DNA of 64,000 nucleotides from Eledone cirrhosa (lineage: Eukaryota), in NCBI GenBank assembly GCA_964016885.1, contig OZ024742.1:363072001-363136000 (forward strand). Reading direction: 5' to 3'. The notes beneath the pieces were generated by a model, which was not told where the DNA came from, made no database searches, and worked only from the letters and a program-made list of their open reading frames with translations. This document shows, piece after piece, positions 37,316 to 51,535 of this stretch (position 1 is its first letter; each line of letters begins with the position of its first letter). A program made the translations under genes and the position numbers.

Positions 37316-38220
37316 CTTTCTTTATTTCCACAGGGGCGTACAAAAATGACGTGACGGCGGGGTTTTACATAAAATGTTTAACAATGATAAATAACAATAA
37401 ACTATATAAAAATATAACAATTGAAATCCCCATTGGAAGGGGGGGGGGGGGTGATGCTACTGCGGGGTTGTTTTACACCCCGTGGATAGAACAACCCTCG
37501 ACACCAGGAACACGTTTTGTTGGTGTTCCCGTCTTCCCTCTGCTTATCTTCCTCAACCTACAGGTTTATATACATAGAAGGCCCATTCACCCCGGACATT
37601 TTCGCCACATTCACCCACCTTTCAGCAAATTTACTGGGGTGTAGCACCTTTCTCTCCACTCTCACCTTCCTTCTGAAGTGATACTTAAAGAATGGGATAA
37701 GTTGTTGTCCGGAGAGAAAGGTACTTGCCCTCAGTCCTTTTAACCTCGTCCACCATATTACCTCTTTCGCCATAGCCACCAGACAGAGGAAGACCGCCTC
37801 TCCTTCATTCTTAAATGAAGGCGGCGGCGTGATCCTCACGATGGACTCGGCTGACAACTGGATACGTCCCACACGTGACAGTAGCTGTTCGACATAATTC
37901 CACAGGTCGGTCACCCCTGGGCACTGAACAATTGCATGCAGAACGGTTTCGTGTCCTGCTCACATCTTGGACAGGTCCTTTTGGCAGGATCTATGCCAGC
38001 GCGTCCGTGCCTGTAGATTTTGTATCGAACTGCTAGAGCTCCTCGGTAGCACTGCCAGGTCAGAGACCTCTGGAAGTTATCCATTGGCCCTGGACGGAAA
38101 GTCCTCCCGAACAGACTAGCCAGTTCGTATTCCTCGATGCCTAGAGTTTCCCCGAGAACGTCGAAGTGGAGTCTCAGCTGATTCCCGTTTCCGCTTTGTA
38201 GAGGGCTGTGGACGCCTGAA
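37316..38220 (-). mobile_element. 5'-truncated, frameshifted Tx1/L1-clade LINE (ORF2 C-terminus plus 3'UTR)
   Basis: ORF 37558-37914 is a clear paralogue of the C-terminus of the 489-aa ORF (DLWxYVEQLLSRVG...MAKEVxWWTRLKGLR). The minus-strand 3' end AATAAAGAAAG is followed by (TATC)n. Confidence 0.88.
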
Positions 38221-38253
38221 TGCAGATAGATGGATAGATATGTAGATAGATAG

Positions 38254-40047
38254 ATTTCTTTTATTTGCCACTAGGGCATCAAAAGTGGGACAAGTACAAA
38301 GGGGGGAGTTTACACAAAAAGGCGTCCTCAATAAGGAGGAGGCAATAACAAAATATAAAAATAAAATAAGATATAACAAAAAATAAAATTTTTAACAAAA
38401 TCCTCAATAGAGAGGAGGCGCCTTGGGGGGTCGCACACACCCCCGAAAAAAGTGTGCAACCCTTCTCCTCAGGAGCACAGAGAAGGGGTGCTCCCTTGGT
38501 CTTTCATCTTCCTCACCTATAGTCTGATGTAGAGTGAAGACCCATTCACACGGGCCATTCTCGCCACTTTCACCCATCTTTCATAGAAACGGCTGGGGTG
38601 CAGCACCTCTCTCTCCATCCTGATCCTTCTTCCGAAATGATATCGGAAGAAACGGACCAGTTGTTGGCCAGAGAGAAAGGTGCCCGACCTCAGTCCTTTC
38701 AGACGCGTCCACCATACAACCTCTTTCGCCATGGCTATTACGCACAGAAACACCGCCTCTGCTTCATCTTTGAAGGGGGGAGGCGGCTTGATCATTACAA
38801 TAGACTCGGTGGTCAACCGCATCGGTCCCACCCTTGACAGCAGTTGTTCGACATAGCCCCACAGATCGGCTACGCCCGAGCAGTGTACTAATGCGTGTGC
38901 AACGGTTTCCTCGTCGCACACGCATCTGGGACAGATCTTTTTGGCGGGGTCCCTACCCGGGCGCCCGTGTCTGTAGAGCCTTTCTCGAACGGGTAAAGCC
39001 CCTCGGTAGCACTGCCAGGCCAGGGACTTCTGGAAGTTGTCCATAGGTCCCGGGCTGAATGTCCTACCGAACAGGCTGGCCAGTTCGTCCTCCTCCATGT
39101 CTAGGGCTTCTCCGAGGGCGTCGTCGCACCTGCTGCGCACCAGCCCTCTATAGAATGTTGCGGTGGAGTCTCCACTGATAACCGGATCCGCCTGCCAGAG
39201 GGCGGTGAGCGCCTGGGCACACTCAGTGTGCCAGGCGCCCAGTTTTCTCGGTCTTTGCTTGACCCAGGATTGCAGCTCGGTGAGTGAGACGAGTCTGGGA
39301 AAGGTTCGTCTCACAAACGAGGCCCACACCGGTTGTCCGGTGAGGAATACGTAGAGGTGCCGTAGCCTTAATGCGTGTTTACGCATCATTAGCCACGGCA
39401 TCCCCAGCCCTCCTTTCGAAGGGTGTTGACAGCAGATGGATCTCCTCACCATAGGAGCCCGCCTCTTCCAAAGGAATTGGAAGAGCGCGCGCTCCATCTT
39501 GGTGAGGGTTTCCCTTGGGCAGGGCACTACGGTCAGGCGGTAGTAGATGACGGACGCTATGTAGGTGTTCGCCACCTCCGCCCGACCTTTCAGGGATAGT
39601 TTGCAACTGGCCCACTTCTGGGTCACTGCAAACACCCTGTTCGTAACCTCCGCCCAGTTTTTCTCCACCTGGAGGTCCGGTCCGAACCAGACCCCGAGCA
39701 ACTTCACCGGGCCCTCCGTCCAGCGTCCGACGACGCTATCGGAGGGCATCGGTCTGCCCCTCCACGTGCCGAGTTGCAAACCGATCGACTTGTCCCGGTT
39801 CAGCTTAGCCCCTGTGAACTTTTCGTACTCCTCCAGTAAGGTGCCGACCGCCTCGATTTCGGAGGCCGTCGACACCATTACTGTCACGTCATCGGCGTAG
39901 GCCGACACCGCTTTCCGCAATCCCGGTTCCAAAGGGATGCCCTGCAACAACTCCAACTTCCGCAGTAGTGGCTCGAGAGTCAACACATACAGAAGGGAGG
40001 AGAGAGGGCACCCTTGTCGGATGGACCGCGCGATTTTGAACGGGGTG
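38254..40047 (-). mobile_element. 5'-truncated Tx1/L1-clade LINE
   Basis: Contains the RT ORF and a 3'UTR ending in AATAAAAGAA. Both ends abut (GATA)n. Confidence 0.92.
38517..40046 (-). CDS. Non-LTR retrotransposon ORF2 fragment: reverse transcriptase C-half plus zf-RVT-type cysteine motif
   Basis: The frame stays open upstream of the called start (PFKIARSIRQGCPLSSLLYVLTLEP). It contains AYADD, GAKLNRDKS, LLGVWF, LSLKGRAEVANT, GGLG and CPRC...ETVAHALVHC. There is no native start codon. Confidence 0.93.
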   Translation of the reverse strand, partial: TPFKIARSIRQGCPLSSLLYVLTLEPLLRKLELLQGIPLEPGLRKAVSAYADDVTVMVSTASEIEAVGTLLEEYEKFTGAKLNRDKSIGLQLGTWRGRPMPSDSVVGRWTEGPVKLLGVWFGPDLQVEKNWAEVTNRVFAVTQKWASCKLSLKGRAEVANTYIASVIYYRLTVVPCPRETLTKMERALFQFLWKRRAPMVRRSICCQHPSKGGLGMPWLMMRKHALRLRHLYVFLTGQPVWASFVRRTFPRLVSLTELQSWVKQRPRKLGAWHTECAQALTALWQADPVISGDSTATFYRGLVRSRCDDALGEALDMEEDELASLFGRTFSPGPMDNFQKSLAWQCYRGALPVRERLYRHGRPGRDPAKKICPRCVCDEETVAHALVHCSGVADLWGYVEQLLSRVGPMRLTTESIVMIKPPPPFKDEAEAVFLCVIAMAKEVVWWTRLKGLRSGTFLSGQQLVRFFRYHFGRRIRMEREVLHPSRFYERWVKVARMARVNGSSLYIRL

Positions 40048-42435: not shown

Positions 42436-42549
42436 AGTGTGTGTGTGTGTGGATGTGTGTATCAATGAGACAAGTAAAATGAGTCAATAGAACATTTAGA
42501 TTAATGTTAATAGTTATAAAAAACATAAGAATAATAATAAAATGATGAT

Positions 42550-45500
42550 GTGAATGAGTAGGAAAGTGAGAAAGTTGAGAAATACCAGGAAACTATGGAT
42601 AATTAGACATGTAGAAGTGGTACCGACTGTGGTTGGTACACTGGGAGTAGTTGGTAGGTTAGACATGTAGAAGTGGTACCGACTGTGGTTGGTACACTGG
42701 GAGTAGTTGGTAGGTTAGACATGTAGAAGTGGTACCGACTGTGTTTGGTGTACTGGGAGTAGTTAGTAGGTTAGACATGTAGAAGTGGTACCGACTGTGG
42801 TTGGTACACTGGAAGTAGTTAGTAGGTTAGACATGTAGAAGTGGTACCGACTGTGGTTGGTACACTGGAAGTAGTTAGTAGGTTACACATGTAGAAGTGG
42901 TACCGACTGTGGTTGGTACACTGGGAGTAGTTGGTAGGTTAGACATGTAGAAGTGGTACCGACTGTGTTTGGTGTACTGGGAGTAGTTAGTAGGTTAGAC
43001 ATGTAGAAGTGGTACCGACTGTGGTTGGTACACTGGGAGTAGTTGGTAGATTAGACATGTAGAAGTGGTACCGACTGTGGTTGGTACACTGGGAGTAGTT
43101 GGTAGGTTAGACATGTAGAAGTGGTACCGACTGTGTTTGGTGTACTGGGAGTAGTTAGTAGGTTAGACATGTAGAAGTGGTACCGACTGTGGTTGGTACA
43201 CTGGAAGTAGTTAGTAGGTTAGACATGTAGAAGTGGTACCGACTGTGGTTGGTACACTGGAAGTAGTTAGTAGGTTAGACATGTAGAAGTGGTACCGACT
43301 GTGGTTGGTACACTGGGAGTAGTTGGTAGGTTAGACATGTAGAAGTGGTACCGACTGTGTTTGGTGTACTGGGAGTAGTTAGTAGGTTAGACATGTAGAA
43401 GTGGTACCGACTGTGGTTGGTACACTGGGAGTAGTTGGTAGGTTAGACATGTAGAAGTGGTACCGACTGTGTTTGGTGTACTGGGAGTAGTTAGTAGGTT
43501 AGACATGTAGACGTGGTACCGACTGTGGTTGGTACACTGGGAGTAGTTGGTAGGTTAGACATGTAGAAGTGGTACCGACTGTGTTTGGTGTACTGGGAGT
43601 AGTTAGTAGGTTAGACATGTAGAAGTGGTACCGACTGTGGTTGGTACACTGGAAGTAGTTAGTAGGTTAGACATGTAGAAGTGGTACCGACTGTGGTTGG
43701 TACACTGGAAGTAGTTAGTAGGTTACACATGTAGAAGTGGTACCGACTGTGGTTGGTACACTGGAAGTAGTTAGTAGGTTAGACATGTAGTAGTGGTACC
43801 GACTGTGGTTGGTGTACTGGGTGTAGTTAGTAGGTTACACATGTAGTAGTGGTACCGATTGTGGTTGGTGTACTGGGTGTAGTTAGTAGGTTACACATGT
43901 AGTAGTGGTACCGACTGTGGTTGGTGTACTGGGTGTAGTTAGTAGGTTAGACATGTAGTAGTGGTACCGACTGTGGTTGGTGTACTGGGTGAAGTTAGTA
44001 GGTTAGACATGTAGTAGTGGTACCGATTGTGGTTGGTGTACTGTGTGTAGTTAGTAGGGTAGACATGTAGTAGTGGTACCGACTGTGGTTGGTGTACTGG
44101 ATGTAGTTAGTAGGTTAGACATATAGTAGTGGTACCGACTGTGGTTGGTGTACTGGGAGTAGTTGGTAGGTTAGACATGTAGTAGTGGTACCGACTGTGG
44201 TTGGTGTACTGGGTGTAGTTAGTAGGTTAGACATGTAGTAGTGTTACCGACTGTGGTTGGTGTACTGGGTGTAGTTAGTAGGTTAGACATGTAGTGGTGG
44301 TACCGACTGTGGTCGGTGTATTAGGAGTAGTTAGTAGGTTAGACATGTAGTAGTGGTACCGACTGTGGTTGGTGTACTGGGTGTAGTTAGTAGGTTAGAC
44401 ATGTAGTAGTGGTACCGACTGTGGTTGGTGTACTGGGAGTAGTTAGTAGGTTAGACATGTAGTAGTGGTACCGACTGTGGTTGGTGTACTGGGTGTAGTT
44501 AGTAGGTTAGACATGTAGTAGTGGTACCGACTGTGGTTGGTGTACTGGGTGTAGTTAGTAGGTTAGACATGTAGTAGTGGTACCGACTGTGGTTGGTGTA
44601 CTGGGTGTAGTTAGTAGGTTAGACATGTAGTAGTGGTACCGATTGTGGTTGGTGTACTGGGTGTAGGTAGTAGGTTAGACATGTAGTAGTGGTACCGACT
44701 GTGGTTGGTGTACTGGGTGTAGTTAGTAGGTTAGACATGTAGTAGTGGTACCGACTGTGGTTGGTGTACTGTGTGTAGTTAATAGGTTAGACATGTAGTA
44801 GTGGTACCGATTGTGGTTGGTGTACTGGGTGTAGTTAGTAGGTTAGACATGTAGTAGTGGTACGACTGTGGATGGTGTACTAGGAGTAGTTAGTAGTTTA
44901 GACATGTAGTAGTGGTACCGACTGTGGTTGGTGTACTAGGAGTAGTTAGTAGTTTAGACATGTAGAAGTGCTACCAATTGTGGTTGGTGTACTGGAAGTA
45001 GTTAGTTGGTTAGACATCTAGAAGTGGAACCATGTGTGGTCGGTGTACTGGGGTAGTTATTAGCTTAGACATGTAGTAGTGGTGCGATTATGCTTGGTGT
45101 ACTGGTAGTAGTTAGAAGGATACACATGTAGTAGTGGTACCGACTGTGGTTGGTGTACTGGGAATAGTTAGTAGATTAGACATGTAGTAGTGGTACCGAC
45201 TGTGGTTGGTGTACTAGGAGTAGTTATTAGGTTAGACATGTAGTAGTGGTATAATGTGTGGTTGGTTTACTAGGAGTAGTTAGTAGGTTAGACATGTAGA
45301 AGTGGTACCGATGTGGTTGGGCTACTGGGAGTAGTTAGTAAGTTAGACATGTAGTAGTTGTACCGACTGTGGTAGGTACAGTGGGAGTAATTACTAGGTT
45401 ACACATGTAGAAGTGGTATCGGCTGTGGTTGGTGTACTAGGACTAGTTAGTAGGTTATTCATGTAGAAGTGGTACCATGTGTGGTTGGTGTACTGGGAGT

Positions 45501-48500
45501 AGTTAGTAGGTTAGATATGTAGAAGTGTTACCGACTGTGGTTGGTACACTGGGAGTAGTTAGTAGGTTAGACATGTAGTAGTGGTACCGACTGTGGTTAG
45601 TGTACTGGGAGTAGTTAGTAGGTTAGACATGTAGAAGTGGTACCGACTGTGGTTGGTACACTAGGATTAGTTAGTAGGTTCGACATGTAGTAGTTGCATC
45701 GACTGTAGTTAGTGTACTGGGTGTATTTAGTAGGATAGACATGTAGAAGTGGTACCGATTGTGGTTGGTGTACTAGGAGTAGTTGGTAGGTTAGACATGT
45801 AGAAGTGGTACCGACTGTGGTTGGTACACTGGGAGTAGTTAGTAGGTTAGACATGTAGAAGTGGTACCGACTCTGGTTGGTACACTGGGAGTAGTTAGTA
45901 GGATAGACATGTAGAAGTGGTACCGACTGTGGTTAGTGTACTGGGAGTAGTTAGTAGGATAGACATGTAGAAGTGGTACCGACTGTGGTTGGTACACTGG
46001 GAGTAGTTAGTAGGTTAGACATGTAGAAGTGGTACCGACTGTGGTTGGTGTACTGGGAGTAGTTAGTAGGGTAGACATGTAGAAGTGGTACCGACTGTGG
46101 TTGGTGTACTGGGAGTAGTTAGTAGGTTAGACATGTAGAAGTGGTACCGACTGTGGTTAGTGTACTGGGAGTAGTTAGTAGGATAGACATGTAGAAGTGG
46201 TACCGACTGTGGTTAGTGTACTGGGAGTAGTTAGTAGGATAGACATGTAGAAGTGGTACCGTCTGTGGTTGGTACACTGTGAGTAGTTAGTAGGTTAGAC
46301 ATGTAGAAGTGGTACCGACTGTGGTTAGTGTACTGGGAGTAGTTAGTAGGATAGACATGTAGTAGTGGTACCAACTCTGGTTGGTGTATTAGGAGTAGTT
46401 AGTAGGTTAGACATGTAGTAGTGGTACCGACTGTGGTCGGTGTATTAGGAGTAGTTAGTAGGTTACATATGTAGTAGTTGTACCGACTGTGGTTGGTGTA
46501 CTGGGAGTAGTTAGTAGGTTAGACATGTAGTAGTGGTACCGACTGTGGTTGGTGTACTGGGAGTAGTTGGTAGGTTAGACATGTAGTAGTGGTACTGACT
46601 GTGGTTGGTGTATTAGGAGTAGTTAGTAGGTTACATATGTAGTAGTGGTACCGACTGTGGTTGGTGTACTAGGAGTAGTTAGTAGGTTAGACATGTAGTA
46701 GTGGTACCGACTGTGGTTGGTGTACTAGGAGTAGTTATTAGGTTAGACATGTAGTAGTGGTATAATGTGTGGTTGGTGTACTAGGAGTAGTTAGTAGGTT
46801 AGACATGTAGAAGTGGTACCAATTGTGGTTGGGCTACTGGGAGTAGTTAGTAAATTAGACATGTAGTAGTTGTACCGACTGTGGTAGGTACAGTGGGAGT
46901 AATTACTAGGTTACACATGTAGAAGTGGTATCGGCTGTGGTTGGTGTACTAGGACTAGTTAGTAGGTTATTCATGTAGAAGTGGTACCATGTGTGGTTGG
47001 TGTACTGGGAGTAGTTAGTAGGTTAGATATGTAGAAGTGGTACCGACTGTGGTAATTACACTAGGATTAGTTAGTAGGTTAGACATGTAGTAGTGGCATC
47101 GACTGTGGTTAGTGTACTTGGTGTATTTAGTAGGATAGACATGTAGAAGTGGTACCGATTGTGGTTGGTGTACTAGGTGTAGTTGGTAGGTTAGACATGT
47201 AGAAGTGGTACCGACTGTGGTTGGTACACTGGGAGTAGTTAGTAGGTTAGACATGTAGTAGTGGTACCGACTGTGGTTGGTACACTGGGAGTAGTTAGTA
47301 GGTTAGACATGTAGAAGTGGTACCGACTGTGGTTGGTACACTGGGAGTAGTTAGTAGGTTAGACATGTAGAAGTGGTACCGACTCTGGTTGGTACACTGG
47401 GAGTAGTTAGTAGGATAGACATGTAGAAGTGGTACCGACTGTGGTTAGTGTACTGGGAGTAGTTAGTAGGATAGACATGTAGAAGTGGTACCGACTGTGG
47501 TTGGTGTACTGGGAGTAGTTAGTAGGGTAGACATGTAGAAGTGGTACCGACTGTGGTTGGTACACTGGGAGTAGTTAGTAGGGTAGACATGTAGAAGTGG
47601 TACCGACTCTGGTTAGTGTACTGGGAGTAGTTAGTAGGATAGACATGTAGAAGTGGTACCGACTGTGGTTGGTGTACTGGGAGTAGTTGGTAGGTTAGAT
47701 ATGTAGAAGTGGTACTGACTGTGGTTGGTGTACTGTGAGTAGTTAGTAGGTTAGACATGTAGTAGTGGTACCAATTGTGGTTGGTGTACTGGGAATAGTT
47801 AGTAGGTTAGACATGTAGTAGTGGTACCGACTGTGGTTGATACACTGTGAGTAGTTAGTAGGTTAGACATGTAGTAGTGGTACCGACTGTGGTTAGTGTA
47901 CTAGGAATAGTTAGTAGGTTACATATGTAGAAGTGGTACCGACTGTGGTTGGTACACTGGGAGTAGTTGGTAGGTTAGACATGTAGAAGTGGTACCGACT
48001 GTGGTTGGTGTACTGGGAGTAGTTAGTAGGTTAGACATGTAGAAGTGGTACCGACTGTGGTTGGTACACTGGGAGTAGTTAGTAGGTTAGACATGTAGAA
48101 GTGGTACCGACTGTGGTTGGTACACTGGGTGTAGTTAGTAGGTTACACATGTAGTAGTGGTACCGACTATGGTTGGTGTACTGGGAGTAGTTGGTAGGGT
48201 AGACATGTAGAAGTGGTACCGACTGTGGTTGGTGTACTGGGTGTAGTTGGTAGGGTAGACATGTAGAAGTGGTACCGACTGTGGTTGGTGTACTGGGAAT
48301 AGTTAGTAGGTTAGACATGTAGTAGTGGTACCGACTGTGGTCGGTGTATTAGGAGTAGTTAGTAGGTTAGACATGTAGAAGTGGTACCAATTGTGGTTGG
48401 TGTACTGGGAATAGTTAGTAGGTTAGACATGTAGTAGTGGTACCGACTGTGGTTAGTGTACTAGGAATAGTTAGTAGGTTACATATGTAGTAGTGGTACC

Positions 48501-51008
48501 GACTGTGGTTGGTGTACTGCTAGTAGTTAGTAGGTTAGACATGTAGAAGTGATACCGACAGTGATTGGTATACTAGGAGTATTTAGTATGTTAGACATGT
48601 AGTATGGGTACCGACTGTGGTTGGTACACTGGGAGTAGTTAGTAGGTTAGACATGTAGAAGTGGCACCGACTGTGGTTGGTGTACTGGGTGTAGTTAGTA
48701 GGTTAGACATGTAGTAGTGGTACCGACTGTGGTTGGTACACTGGGAGTAGTTAGTAGGTTAGATATGTAGAAGTGGTACCGACTGTGGTTGGTACACTGG
48801 GAGTAGTTGGTAGGTTAGACATGTAGTAGTGGTACCGACTGTGGTTAGTGTACTAGGAATAGTTAGTACTTTAGACATCTAGAAGTGGTACCCACTGTTG
48901 TTGGTGTACTGGGAGTAGTTAGTAGGTTAGACATGTAGAAGTGGTACTGACTGTGGTTGGTGTACTAGGAGTAGTTAGTAGGTTAGACATGTAGAAGTGG
49001 TACCGACTGTGGTTGGTACACTGGGAGTAGTTGGTAGGTTAGACATGTAGTAGTGGTACCAATTGTGGTTGGTGTACTGGGAATAGTTAGTAGGTTAGAC
49101 ATGTAGTAGTGGTACCGACTGTGGTTAGTGTACTAGGAATAGTTAGTAGGTTACATATGTAGAAGTGGTACCGACTGTGGTTGGTACACTGGGAGTAGTT
49201 GGTAGGTTAGACATGTAGTAGTGGTACCGACTGTGGTTAGTGTACTAGGAATAGTTAGTACTTTAGACATCTAGAAGTGGTACCCACTGTTGTTGGTGTA
49301 CTGGGAGTAGTTAGTAGGTTAGACATGTAGAAGTGTTACCGACTGTGGTTGGTACACTGGGAGTAGTTAGTAGGTTAGACATGTAGAAGTGGTACCGACT
49401 GTGGTTGGTGTACTGGGAGTAGTTGGTAGGTTAGACATGTAGAAGTGGTACCGACTGTGGTTAGTACACTGGGAGTAGTTGGTAGGTTAGACATGTAGAG
49501 GTGGTAGCGACTGTGGTTGGTGTACTAGGAGTAGTTAGTAGGTTAGACATGTAGTAGTGGTACCGACTGTGGTTGGTACACTGGGAGTAGTAATCAGGTT
49601 AGGCATATAGTATTTGTATCATTTGTGGTTGGTACACTGGGAGTAGTTGGTAGGTTAGACATGTAGAAGTGGTACCGACTGTGGTTAGTACACTGGGAGT
49701 AGTTGGTAGGTTAGACATGTAGTAGTGGTACCGACTGTGGTTGGTACACTGGGAGTAGTTAGTAGGTTAGACATGTAGAACTGCTACCGACTGTGGTTGG
49801 TGTACTGGGAGTAGTTAGTAAGTTTCACATGTAGTAGTTGTACCGACTGTGGTTGGTGTACTGGGAGTAGTTAGTAGGTTAGACATGTAGTAGTGGTACC
49901 GACTGTGGTTGGTGTACAGGGAGTAGTTAGTAGGTTAGACATGTAGTAGAGGTACCGACTGTGGTTGGTGTACTGAGAGTAGTTAGTAGGTTAGTCATGT
50001 AGAAGTGGTACCGACTGTGGTTGGTACACTGGGAGTAGTTAGTAGGTTAGACATGTAGTAGTGGTACCGCCTGTGGTTGGTGTACTGGGAGTAGTTGGTA
50101 GGTTAGACTTGTAGAAGTGGTACCGAATGTGGTTGGTGTACTAGGGGTAGTTAGTACTTTAGACATCTAGAAGTGGTACCCACTGTGGTTGGTACACTGG
50201 GAGTAGTTAGTAGGTTAGACATGTAGTATTGGTACCGACTCTGGTTGGTACACTGGGAGTAGTTAGTAGGTTAGACATGTAGACGTGGTACCGACTGTGG
50301 TTGGTGTACTTGGAGTAGTTATTAGGTTAGGCATATAGTATTTGTACCAATTGTGGTTGGTACACTGGGAGTAGTTAGTAGGTTAGACATGTAGAAGTGT
50401 TACCGACTGTGGTTGGTACACTAGGATTAGTTAGTAGGTTAGACATGTAGTAGTGGTACCAATTGTGGTTGGTGTAATATGAGTAGTTAGTTGGTTAGAC
50501 ATGTGGAAGTGATACCGACTGTGATTGGTATACTAGGAGTATTTAGTAGGTTAAACATGTAGTAGTGGTACCGACTGTGGTTGGTGTACTGGGAGTAGTT
50601 AGTAGGTTAGACAGGTAGAAGTGTTACCGACTGTGGTTGGTGTACTAGGAGTAGTTAGTAGGTTAGACATGTAGTAGTGGTACCACTTGTGGTTGGTGTT
50701 CTAGGAGTAGTTAGTAGGTTAGACATGTAGAAGTGCTACCGACTGTGGTTGGTGTACTAGGAGTTGTAAGTAGAAGTTTTGATGCAAGGATTGAGAATTA
50801 CAAGCTGGATAGGATTGTTGTAGAAAACAGCCATGTTGGGAACAGCAAAGATTCTAAGGTGGTTTTGGGAAATTTGAAGGAGAAGAAAAAACCGAAAGGA
50901 CCTTTGGTTTTTGGTTATGTCTCGCTATCTTGGCATAGAATCGTTATAACATCTTCCAGAGCAAATTACAATTCGAAGACAGACAACAACAAGAACAAGA
51001 ATAATAAT
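42550..51008 (+). mobile_element. 3' fragment of an R4/Dong-type (RLE) non-LTR retrotransposon interrupted by its own satellite expansion
   Basis: Left flank translates VNE*ESEKVEKYQ / KLWIIRHVEVVPTVVGTLGVV. Right flank translates VLPTVVGVLGVVSRSFDARIE / IGLL*KTAMLGTAKILR, then a 3'UTR and a CAA/AAT tail. (AAT)n also lies on the left. Confidence 0.8.
42603..50765. repeat. 56-bp tandem satellite, about 145 copies: TTAGACATGTAG(A/T)AGTGGTACCGACTGTGGTTGGTRYACTGGGAGTAGTTAGTAGG
   Basis: Period of 56 read directly. Most monomers carry one GGTACC and one ACATGT site. Confidence 0.98.
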
Positions 51009-51218
51009 GTTTTCTTATACAGGCACAAGGCCAGCAATTTTTGGGGAAGGGAAGGTCGATCAACTCGACCCCAGTGCATGACTGGTACTTTATTTTATCG
51101 ACCCCGTAAGGATGAAATGCAAAGTTAACCTCGGCATGGTTTGAGCTTAGACCGTAAAGGGACGTAACTATGCTGGAAATCATGGCGTCCGACCCTCTAC
51201 CGATACTGCCAATCCACC
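51009..51218 (-). mobile_element. tRNA-derived SINE, inserted at the AAT tail of the R4-like element
   Basis: Reverse complement of the family motif (CTGGTACTTTATTTTATCGACCCCGTAAGGATGAAA) and of the head (CTCTACCGATACTGCCAATCC). Confidence 0.88.
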
Positions 51219-51535
51219 AATAATAAGGATGATGATGATGATAATAATTTCTTTCGTATACTAAAAAGCGCGTCATTAAGATGAGACATTACATCGATAA
51301 GTTACAAAATGCCGGTGATGTTTACATAGAAATGATAAAATTGCTAACATAAATAAATTACAAACAAGTTTACACCGAGAGCTAAATACCTAATGTCTAA
51401 TATATATGTTAGGAATAGCAGAGATCCTCAACAACATTGACCACCAAGGGTGTGTGCCATCTTCCACACTATCATTGATGATTCATTCGTAAATGACATC
51501 ATGAGATAATATTATAACCCATCTTCCTATCATAG

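Follow-up and report, generated by a model that had tools for sequence, protein, structure and literature searches.

Satellites derived from transposable elements are already known, and the arrival of a satellite on new chromosomes is usually inferred once its flanks are gone. According to the available text of PMC9659126, satellites related to the open reading frames (ORFs) of long interspersed nuclear elements (LINEs) include chicken HinfI (CR1), Phodopus PROsat (L1 ORF2), seal Pvc20 and the cetacean common satellite. For the Rsp-like satellite of Drosophila, either interlocus gene conversion or circular DNA is proposed as the vehicle, with seeding through homology to a resident repeat (PMC7403614). 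R4/Dong LINEs carry a diverged SANT/Myb-like N-terminal domain and no N-terminal zinc fingers (PMC7998251, in the part available), and R4-Dong is almost restricted to cephalopods among the molluscs analysed in PMC10294476. Here we describe a variant of these cases: a 56-bp satellite inside a copy of a LINE, probably of R4/Dong type, in a 64,000-nucleotide stretch of Eledone cirrhosa (assembly GCA_964016885.1, contig OZ024742.1, positions 363,072,001 to 363,136,000 of the forward strand; the window). Within the 3.0-Gb genome the window maps to chromosome C3, with 16 Mb between it and the contig end. One and the same junction recurs in some two dozen LINE copies that are homologous and can each be dated separately, beside array-free copies and single-locus arrays of other slices of the element. 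In a literature search of mostly open-access sources we found no report of the 56-bp repeat, of an R4/Dong-derived satellite or of a satellite spread into dispersed LINE copies; repeat libraries (supplements, Repbase/Dfam) may hold the unit.

Results and discussion

The array and its host element

Positions 42603–50773 of the window (forward strand) hold a head-to-tail repeat with a period of 56 bp, 146.0 copies and 89% matches by Tandem Repeats Finder, in line with the roughly 145-fold amplification given in the original prediction, a note made earlier on this DNA. Segmentation yielded 147 segments (141 of 56 bp, four of 55 bp and two of 54 bp), the final one being flank, and alignment identified the units as a 59-bp slice of LINE coding sequence minus 3 bp. 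In the register of the parent element they run from 42605 to ~50779, and solely the last unit keeps the parental 59-bp tail. Left flank plus unit 1 (102 of 114 columns identical) and last unit plus right flank (214 of 271) are both collinear with an array-free genomic copy (L017), and the same pieces match the protein of that copy collinearly (E = 2e-9 on the left, 7e-9 on the right). The array thus sits in register within a LINE copy whose two flanks belong to the same element as the unit, as had been proposed. The peptides quoted with that proposal are present, but they are spread over different frames (a 20-bp deletion at a CAGGA direct repeat near 42586–42590 on the left, and an 8-bp deletion on the right).

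The left flank (42550–42604, forward strand) belongs to the endonuclease region and begins just past the catalytic motif, the copy being 5′-truncated at 42550; family contigs and reads extend farther upstream at that point. It abuts a target-like AAT/ATG microsatellite run (42530–42549, forward strand) at the 5′ junction. Rightwards, also on the forward strand, follow the rest of the ORF (50780–50877, with the 8-bp deletion, one internal stop and the stop codon at 50875–50877), the 3′ untranslated region (UTR; 50878–50971) and a decayed AAC/AAT tail (from approximately 50972 to 51008) composed of the LINE 3′ end and target microsatellite, so that the TAA-type repeats predicted on both sides are indeed there. 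No target-site duplication was seen at this copy, of which the window holds only ~270 bp, dead and truncated.

Exact internal repeats of at least 200 bp at offsets of 7, 15 and 27 units indicate local block duplication, and hence that growth to 146 units took place here, again as originally supposed. A head-to-tail array of many kilobases with local higher-order duplication qualifies as a satellite or minisatellite. Its product is non-coding, because units of 56 and 59 bp disrupt the reading frame, and we propose no function for it. A hairpin as the cause of the array was considered and set aside: dimer folding gave z values of about −2.2 for two window dimers and of −1.1 and +1.6 for two parent copies, suggestive at most.

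Searching with the right flank recovered a dispersed family (at least 40 places, 73–79% identity), and the C-terminal 154 amino acids of one copy (P0001) find 153 longer proteins. The best full-length one (1136 amino acids, 63% identity) carries the Pfam domains RVT_1 and zf-RVT, and four genomic copies match it over residues 1–1136. The parent family has a single ORF with a reverse transcriptase (RT), a CCHC knuckle and a C-terminal restriction-like endonuclease; a profile of 23 proteins ranked R2 structures first (E = 9e-42, and 0.09 for the endonuclease part alone), and Pfam held no model for the endonuclease part. None of seven relatives scanned (six of them full-length) gave an N-terminal zinc-finger or Myb match in Pfam, and for residues 35–130 of one relative the best named Atlas match was Myb_Rap1 at 0.85, a lead only. 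Insertion into (TAA)n microsatellites is seen at the window copy, flanked on both sides by AAT-type runs, and 28 of 60 3′ ends found with a strict pattern were followed by at least two AAT-type triplets within 45 bases, as a raw count. By the features set out in the available text of PMC7998251, the parent element probably is, and works like, R4/Dong, and the earlier attribution of the unit to the C-terminal restriction-like endonuclease region of such an element fits the predicted domain layout and the target. Copies differ by ~8.5% from the commonest letters of the family and by ~15% from each other, and are therefore old.

One junction at many loci

Genome-wide, the 56-bp junction pattern had 1432 exact matches against none for a reversed control and is thus no product of chance; its 59-bp form had 535 matches at up to two mismatches. 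A census built from end-specific patterns and fetched stretches, in which loci for the 59-bp form were taken from the 100 matches listed of 535, so that its total is a lower bound, placed the same junction at at least 24 loci on 13 chromosomes, the window included. These lie on C1 (0.2 and 1.38 Mb), C2 (11.4, with ~47 kb of array, 12.4 and 16.8 Mb), C3 (363.1 Mb, the window), C8 (7.4 Mb), C9 (2.5, 14.3 and 15.4 Mb), C10 (40.0 Mb), C11 (33.7 and 35.6 Mb), C17 (11.7 Mb), C18 (13.4 Mb, ~58 kb, holding an inverted block), C20 (34.7 Mb), C21 (10.4, 21.9 and 23.9 Mb), C23 (6.6, 19.9 and 23.8 Mb) and C25 (25.9 and 26.1 Mb). Most arrays keep the same flanks: 19 of the 24 loci have both LINE flanks, three lack the left and two the right, and array sizes range from ~1.3 to ~1000 units (~58 kb). 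In the C18 array (13.41 Mb), the inverted block comprises ~45 units (L061:4369-6961), and periods of 72/128 bp containing a 16-bp sub-repeat also occur. Contigs under three organism labels carry the 56-bp junction, as short pieces with mostly <31 letters on one side; none of these labels' contigs covers the window's unique left flank, and no RNA data with the sequence were listed among public runs.

The array-free unit is 59 bp long with three CpG sites. Arrays on C9 and C21 consist of 59-bp units with the parent tail; others show an A-to-T change in the tail, or the 3-bp loss that gives 56 bp. Heads of first units and tails of last units are mostly parent-like and vary by locus, and internal units share derived letters, even in arrays of two or three units. 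The window array has no internal 59-bp unit (138 of 142 spacings are 56), which makes it a derived member and an unlikely source. The satellite likely arose once, elsewhere than in the window copy.

This bears directly on the claim that the window preserves the birthplace of the satellite, from whose array all others would descend. Collinear, in-register flanks and local growth are what such a birth would leave, but at least 23 other loci have the same junction inside the same LINE, the window holds only the derived 56-bp form with its derived letters while more parent-like 59-bp arrays stand on C9 and C21, and the window's flank alleles are not common to the other loci. Its right flank has moreover decayed further than any other of the 15 array flanks that were measured, standing at 0.187 from the commonest letters of the family (0.068–0.129 for the others). 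Variant polarity largely refutes this reading, and we consider it very improbable.

Arrays also arise from further slices of this LINE, with units of 24, 44, 73, 119 and 129 bp. All 24 matches of the 44-bp slice fall at one locus (C1, 18.2 Mb) and all 174 of the 73-bp slice in one 16-kb array on C9; such single-locus arrays indicate that in-place birth from a LINE slice is routine in this genome. Amplification at a single locus is ordinary here; what stands out is that one junction reached 24 sites. On C9, at 14.27–14.29 Mb (L057/L157/L158), one LINE copy carries both a 35-unit array of the 59-bp slice and an array of ~16 kb of the 73-bp slice, which by eye resembles the region past the RT domain. 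The 44-bp array (L009) derives from the 3′ UTR, and further slice arrays were noted at 8.98 Mb on C23 (L007) and at L066 and L067 (C23), with units of 22/24, 129 and 119 bp.

The readiness with which this family duplicates slices invites the explanation that recombination-rich regions produced the 59-bp duplication several times over, each time independently, owing to a likeness between the two slice ends; each array would then have been born at its present site, and the units homogenised by later exchange. At offset 59 the parent has 9–12 of 22 letters identical and 20–21 of 22 concordant as purine or pyrimidine, in five of five copies, but by identity this offset lies outside the six best in all five. 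A 31-unit array in the interior of C1 (217 Mb), which we counted apart, shares the 59-bp register but has its crossover a few bases farther along, and the two-unit seed at C1 1.38 Mb (read from the sequence, having been missed by the script pattern) has parent-like letters and lacks the shared derived ones. Set against this, 24 loci share one crossover and one has another, the two other slices tested are each confined to a single locus, and derived letters occur even in two- and three-unit arrays. We therefore regard recurrent origin as unlikely.

Exchange between loci

Identical 48-base twins of the 135 window units occur on C1 (31), C2 (30), C18 (24) and C25 (17) and, less often, on C23 and C9 (six each); the remaining 12 of the 18 loci have no such twin. 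Unit distances between loci (0.09–0.12) match those within the window (0.106). The window's right flank is only 74–79% identical to the C1, C2, C18 and C25 loci; because identical units are shared across loci whose flanks differ this much, the units are younger than the flanks. Exchange between loci is needed under every model.

Copying of element sequence between loci was also seen in the flanks. Among 2522 right-flank pairs from 75 copies (median 85%), the top three (100%, 100% and 95%) were same-chromosome neighbours 1–2 Mb apart with different outer flanks, two of the pairs being array-bearing. An array pair on C11 (L059/L060) is 99% identical on both sides with 7 and 5 units and unlike 5′ ends, an array pair on C9 has flank identities of 93–95%, and an array-free pair on C3 (L002/L003; 219.96 and 218.63 Mb) is near-identical with the same 5′ end. 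Near-identical pairs show element-limited copying between old copies, long after the radiation of the family; we infer gene conversion as its cause, and the creation of new array loci by such exchange is likewise a deduction and not something seen. Similar close pairs were listed at C2 271.5/272.0 and C4 365.0/368.3. Segmental duplication was rejected as the route of spread, there being no outer-flank homology past dispersed repeats in the 15 pairs compared.

The flanks of array-bearing copies bear on a further explanation, the transposition of an already duplicated master. In this scheme a source with at least two units retrotransposed, after which the arrays grew where they had landed and became partly homogenised across loci, a route of the Ogre type. 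The array loci have variable 5′ ends and AAT tails, as such a route would predict, and some flank alleles are confined to array copies: left-flank allele −71 in 7 of 17 array copies against none of 35 array-free ones, and −244, the best near-diagnostic allele, in 5 of 11 against none of 32. These two occur in all four combinations, however, both right-flank haplotypes are present among array copies, and no flank allele is universal to them though their units share several derived letters. Array-copy flanks are no closer to each other (distances of 0.177 and 0.142) than those of other copies (0.151 and 0.150), and a permutation of shared alleles gave p = 0.21 and 0.10. Trees of these 200–300-base flanks, from a set without nine right and 12 left flanks that were too short and without the near-duplicates L003 and L060, gave little resolution, with stars on 2 of 47 and 1 of 36 inner branches. 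The absence of seeds from 22 interior copies, where most ordinary copies lie, also speaks against a transposing master, and two arrays without a 3′ flank imply that deletions alone can remove a flank. We find this route rather unlikely.

A-to-I editing was rejected as the origin of the shared A-to-G alleles: 65 of 132 follow G, a base that ADAR disfavours before the edited A, and the excess is also present in array-free copies. The rate of AT-to-GC change was 0.058 in array-copy flanks and 0.037 in interior array-free copies, with shared alleles not discounted, a difference of the kind that GC-biased conversion would give.

Chromosomal position

Array loci avoid the interior of large chromosomes. 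None of 23 lies >20 Mb from the ends of chromosomes >100 Mb, against 31 of 36 copies found by RT hits, a count that leaves out three unplaced hits, one array copy and the C1 217 Mb array and whose comparison set is biased to long copies near one query. In an array-blind sample, drawn with a 28-base motif that matched 36 times at 32 places, of which an unplaced one was excluded, the junction was present in five of nine distal or small-chromosome copies and none of 22 interior ones (p = 7e-4). Merging near-identical pairs left four of eight against none of 21 (p = 0.003), and dropping two interior copies truncated inside the slice gave p = 0.001. By eye, distal and small-chromosome stretches (L051–L070, L131–L138, L157–L161) are crowded with unrelated arrays of 20–160-bp units, and interior stretches (L071–L109) less so. 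We take distal and small-chromosome regions to recombine more.

Proposed mechanism

We give an even chance to the reading that one duplication spread among old LINE copies by ectopic gene conversion and then expanded locally. This history begins with the radiation of the single-ORF family, with its RT and restriction-like endonuclease, of which old, mostly 5′-truncated copies ~15% apart remain. One copy would then have acquired a 59-bp tandem duplication. Breaks in other copies, mainly at chromosome ends and on small chromosomes, may have been repaired with array-bearing copies as template. A strand invading the flank or a unit, the shared LINE flanks offering the homology for landing, would copy several units at a time, and would move the junction and later variants (the 3-bp loss to 56 bp and point variants) between loci. 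Each seed finally grew in place to between two and ~1000 units, probably by unequal exchange or slippage.

Several observations weigh against this account. No locus has been shown both empty and filled, and array gain by conversion was not observed. Three arrays start within the array without a left flank, one of them directly past a microsatellite run, as a truncated retrocopy from a seeded master would give. A single clade of array-bearing copies was not rejected in approximately unbiased (AU) tests (p = 0.152 right, 0.103 left), which again accords with a transposing master. Two cases, the parent-like seed at C1 1.38 Mb and the 217 Mb array on that chromosome, are compatible with independent origins. 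Similarity of units between loci could also be maintained if unmutated units were amplified preferentially, and the bias of the RT-hit comparison set has to be kept in mind.

If the spread did run through conversion, the satellite may be described, tentatively, as 'homing': a LINE-coding slice that would use homology-directed repair to colonise dead, array-free copies of that same LINE. It would have entered about half of the copies near chromosome ends or on small chromosomes, and no copy in large-chromosome interiors. Dispersed retrotransposon fossils would then be pre-made landing pads for satellite spread. Seeding and growth are tied to a chromosome compartment, and transposition of a seed, ectopic conversion and recurrent origin can be separated in this system with population or sister-species assemblies.

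Other features of the window

A homing satellite may in turn have spawned its neighbour, a 17-bp satellite of ~30.6 kb at 5–30073 (reverse strand), which runs ~540 bp beyond the window start (to L111:9459). It lies 12.5 kb left of the 56-bp array, inverted relative to it, and is single-locus among the matches listed (100 of 102, all in the window). A 15-base word is common to the 17-bp satellite (339 times) and the 56-bp array (13 times). Shuffling the less similar common form of the 17-mer gave no significant result (87 and 426 of 3000); with both common forms, a test picked after that first result, the observed 15 and 13 bases were reached by 1 and 2 of 2000 shuffles. Descent of the 17-mer from the 56-mer, as a second-generation satellite, is plausible from this likeness. 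We discarded the idea that it is a second LINE-flanked array, as neither end has a LINE flank.

Immediately behind the AAC/AAT tail, in the same microsatellite, lies an antisense dispersed repeat of ~210 bp (51009–51225, reverse strand) with seven more partial matches in the window, which we take to be SINE-like (short interspersed nuclear element). It often stands in the AAT tail directly behind the LINE 3′ end at the many loci fetched, which suggests that the two have a common microsatellite target. Elsewhere, a GC-rich piece of another RT-encoding element at ~37500–40040 (reverse strand; weak tblastn match at 39195–40037, E = 4e-5) probably belongs to a different LINE clade, and an ARAGORN scan found no tRNA.

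Comparison with known systems

Like the R4/Dong clade as described in the available parts of PMC7998251, PMC4640811 and PMC10294476, the parent family combines a single ORF carrying RT and a C-terminal restriction-like endonuclease with a TAA-type target, and its N-terminus gives a Myb-like lead. It differs in that the window holds a dead, truncated fragment alone, and the likeness is one of features, not of a tree. With the LINE-ORF-related satellites, the 56-bp repeat has in common its relation to a LINE coding region or 3′ end. Those cases are, by description in the accessible text of PMC9659126, sequence similarities between satellite and LINE; here, by contrast, the arrays stand in register within copies of their parent, itself a restriction-like-endonuclease element.

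The Ogre satellites of Lathyrus sativus (PMC7004042, in the part available) are alike in that short arrays in dispersed retrotransposon copies become long in one compartment, with all stages visible. The Ogre repeats belong to the 3′ UTR of a long-terminal-repeat element, move by transposition and lengthen in primary constrictions, whereas here the unit is a coding slice of a non-LTR element, even short seeds are distal or on small chromosomes, and spread after insertion is favoured. In the Rsp-like satellites within 1.688 clusters of Drosophila simulans (PMC7403614, again as far as its available text goes), one junction type is likewise found at many loci. In D. simulans an older satellite on a single chromosome provides the landing sites; in the present case these are LINE copies dispersed over 13 chromosomes, and the repeat itself comes from their sequence.

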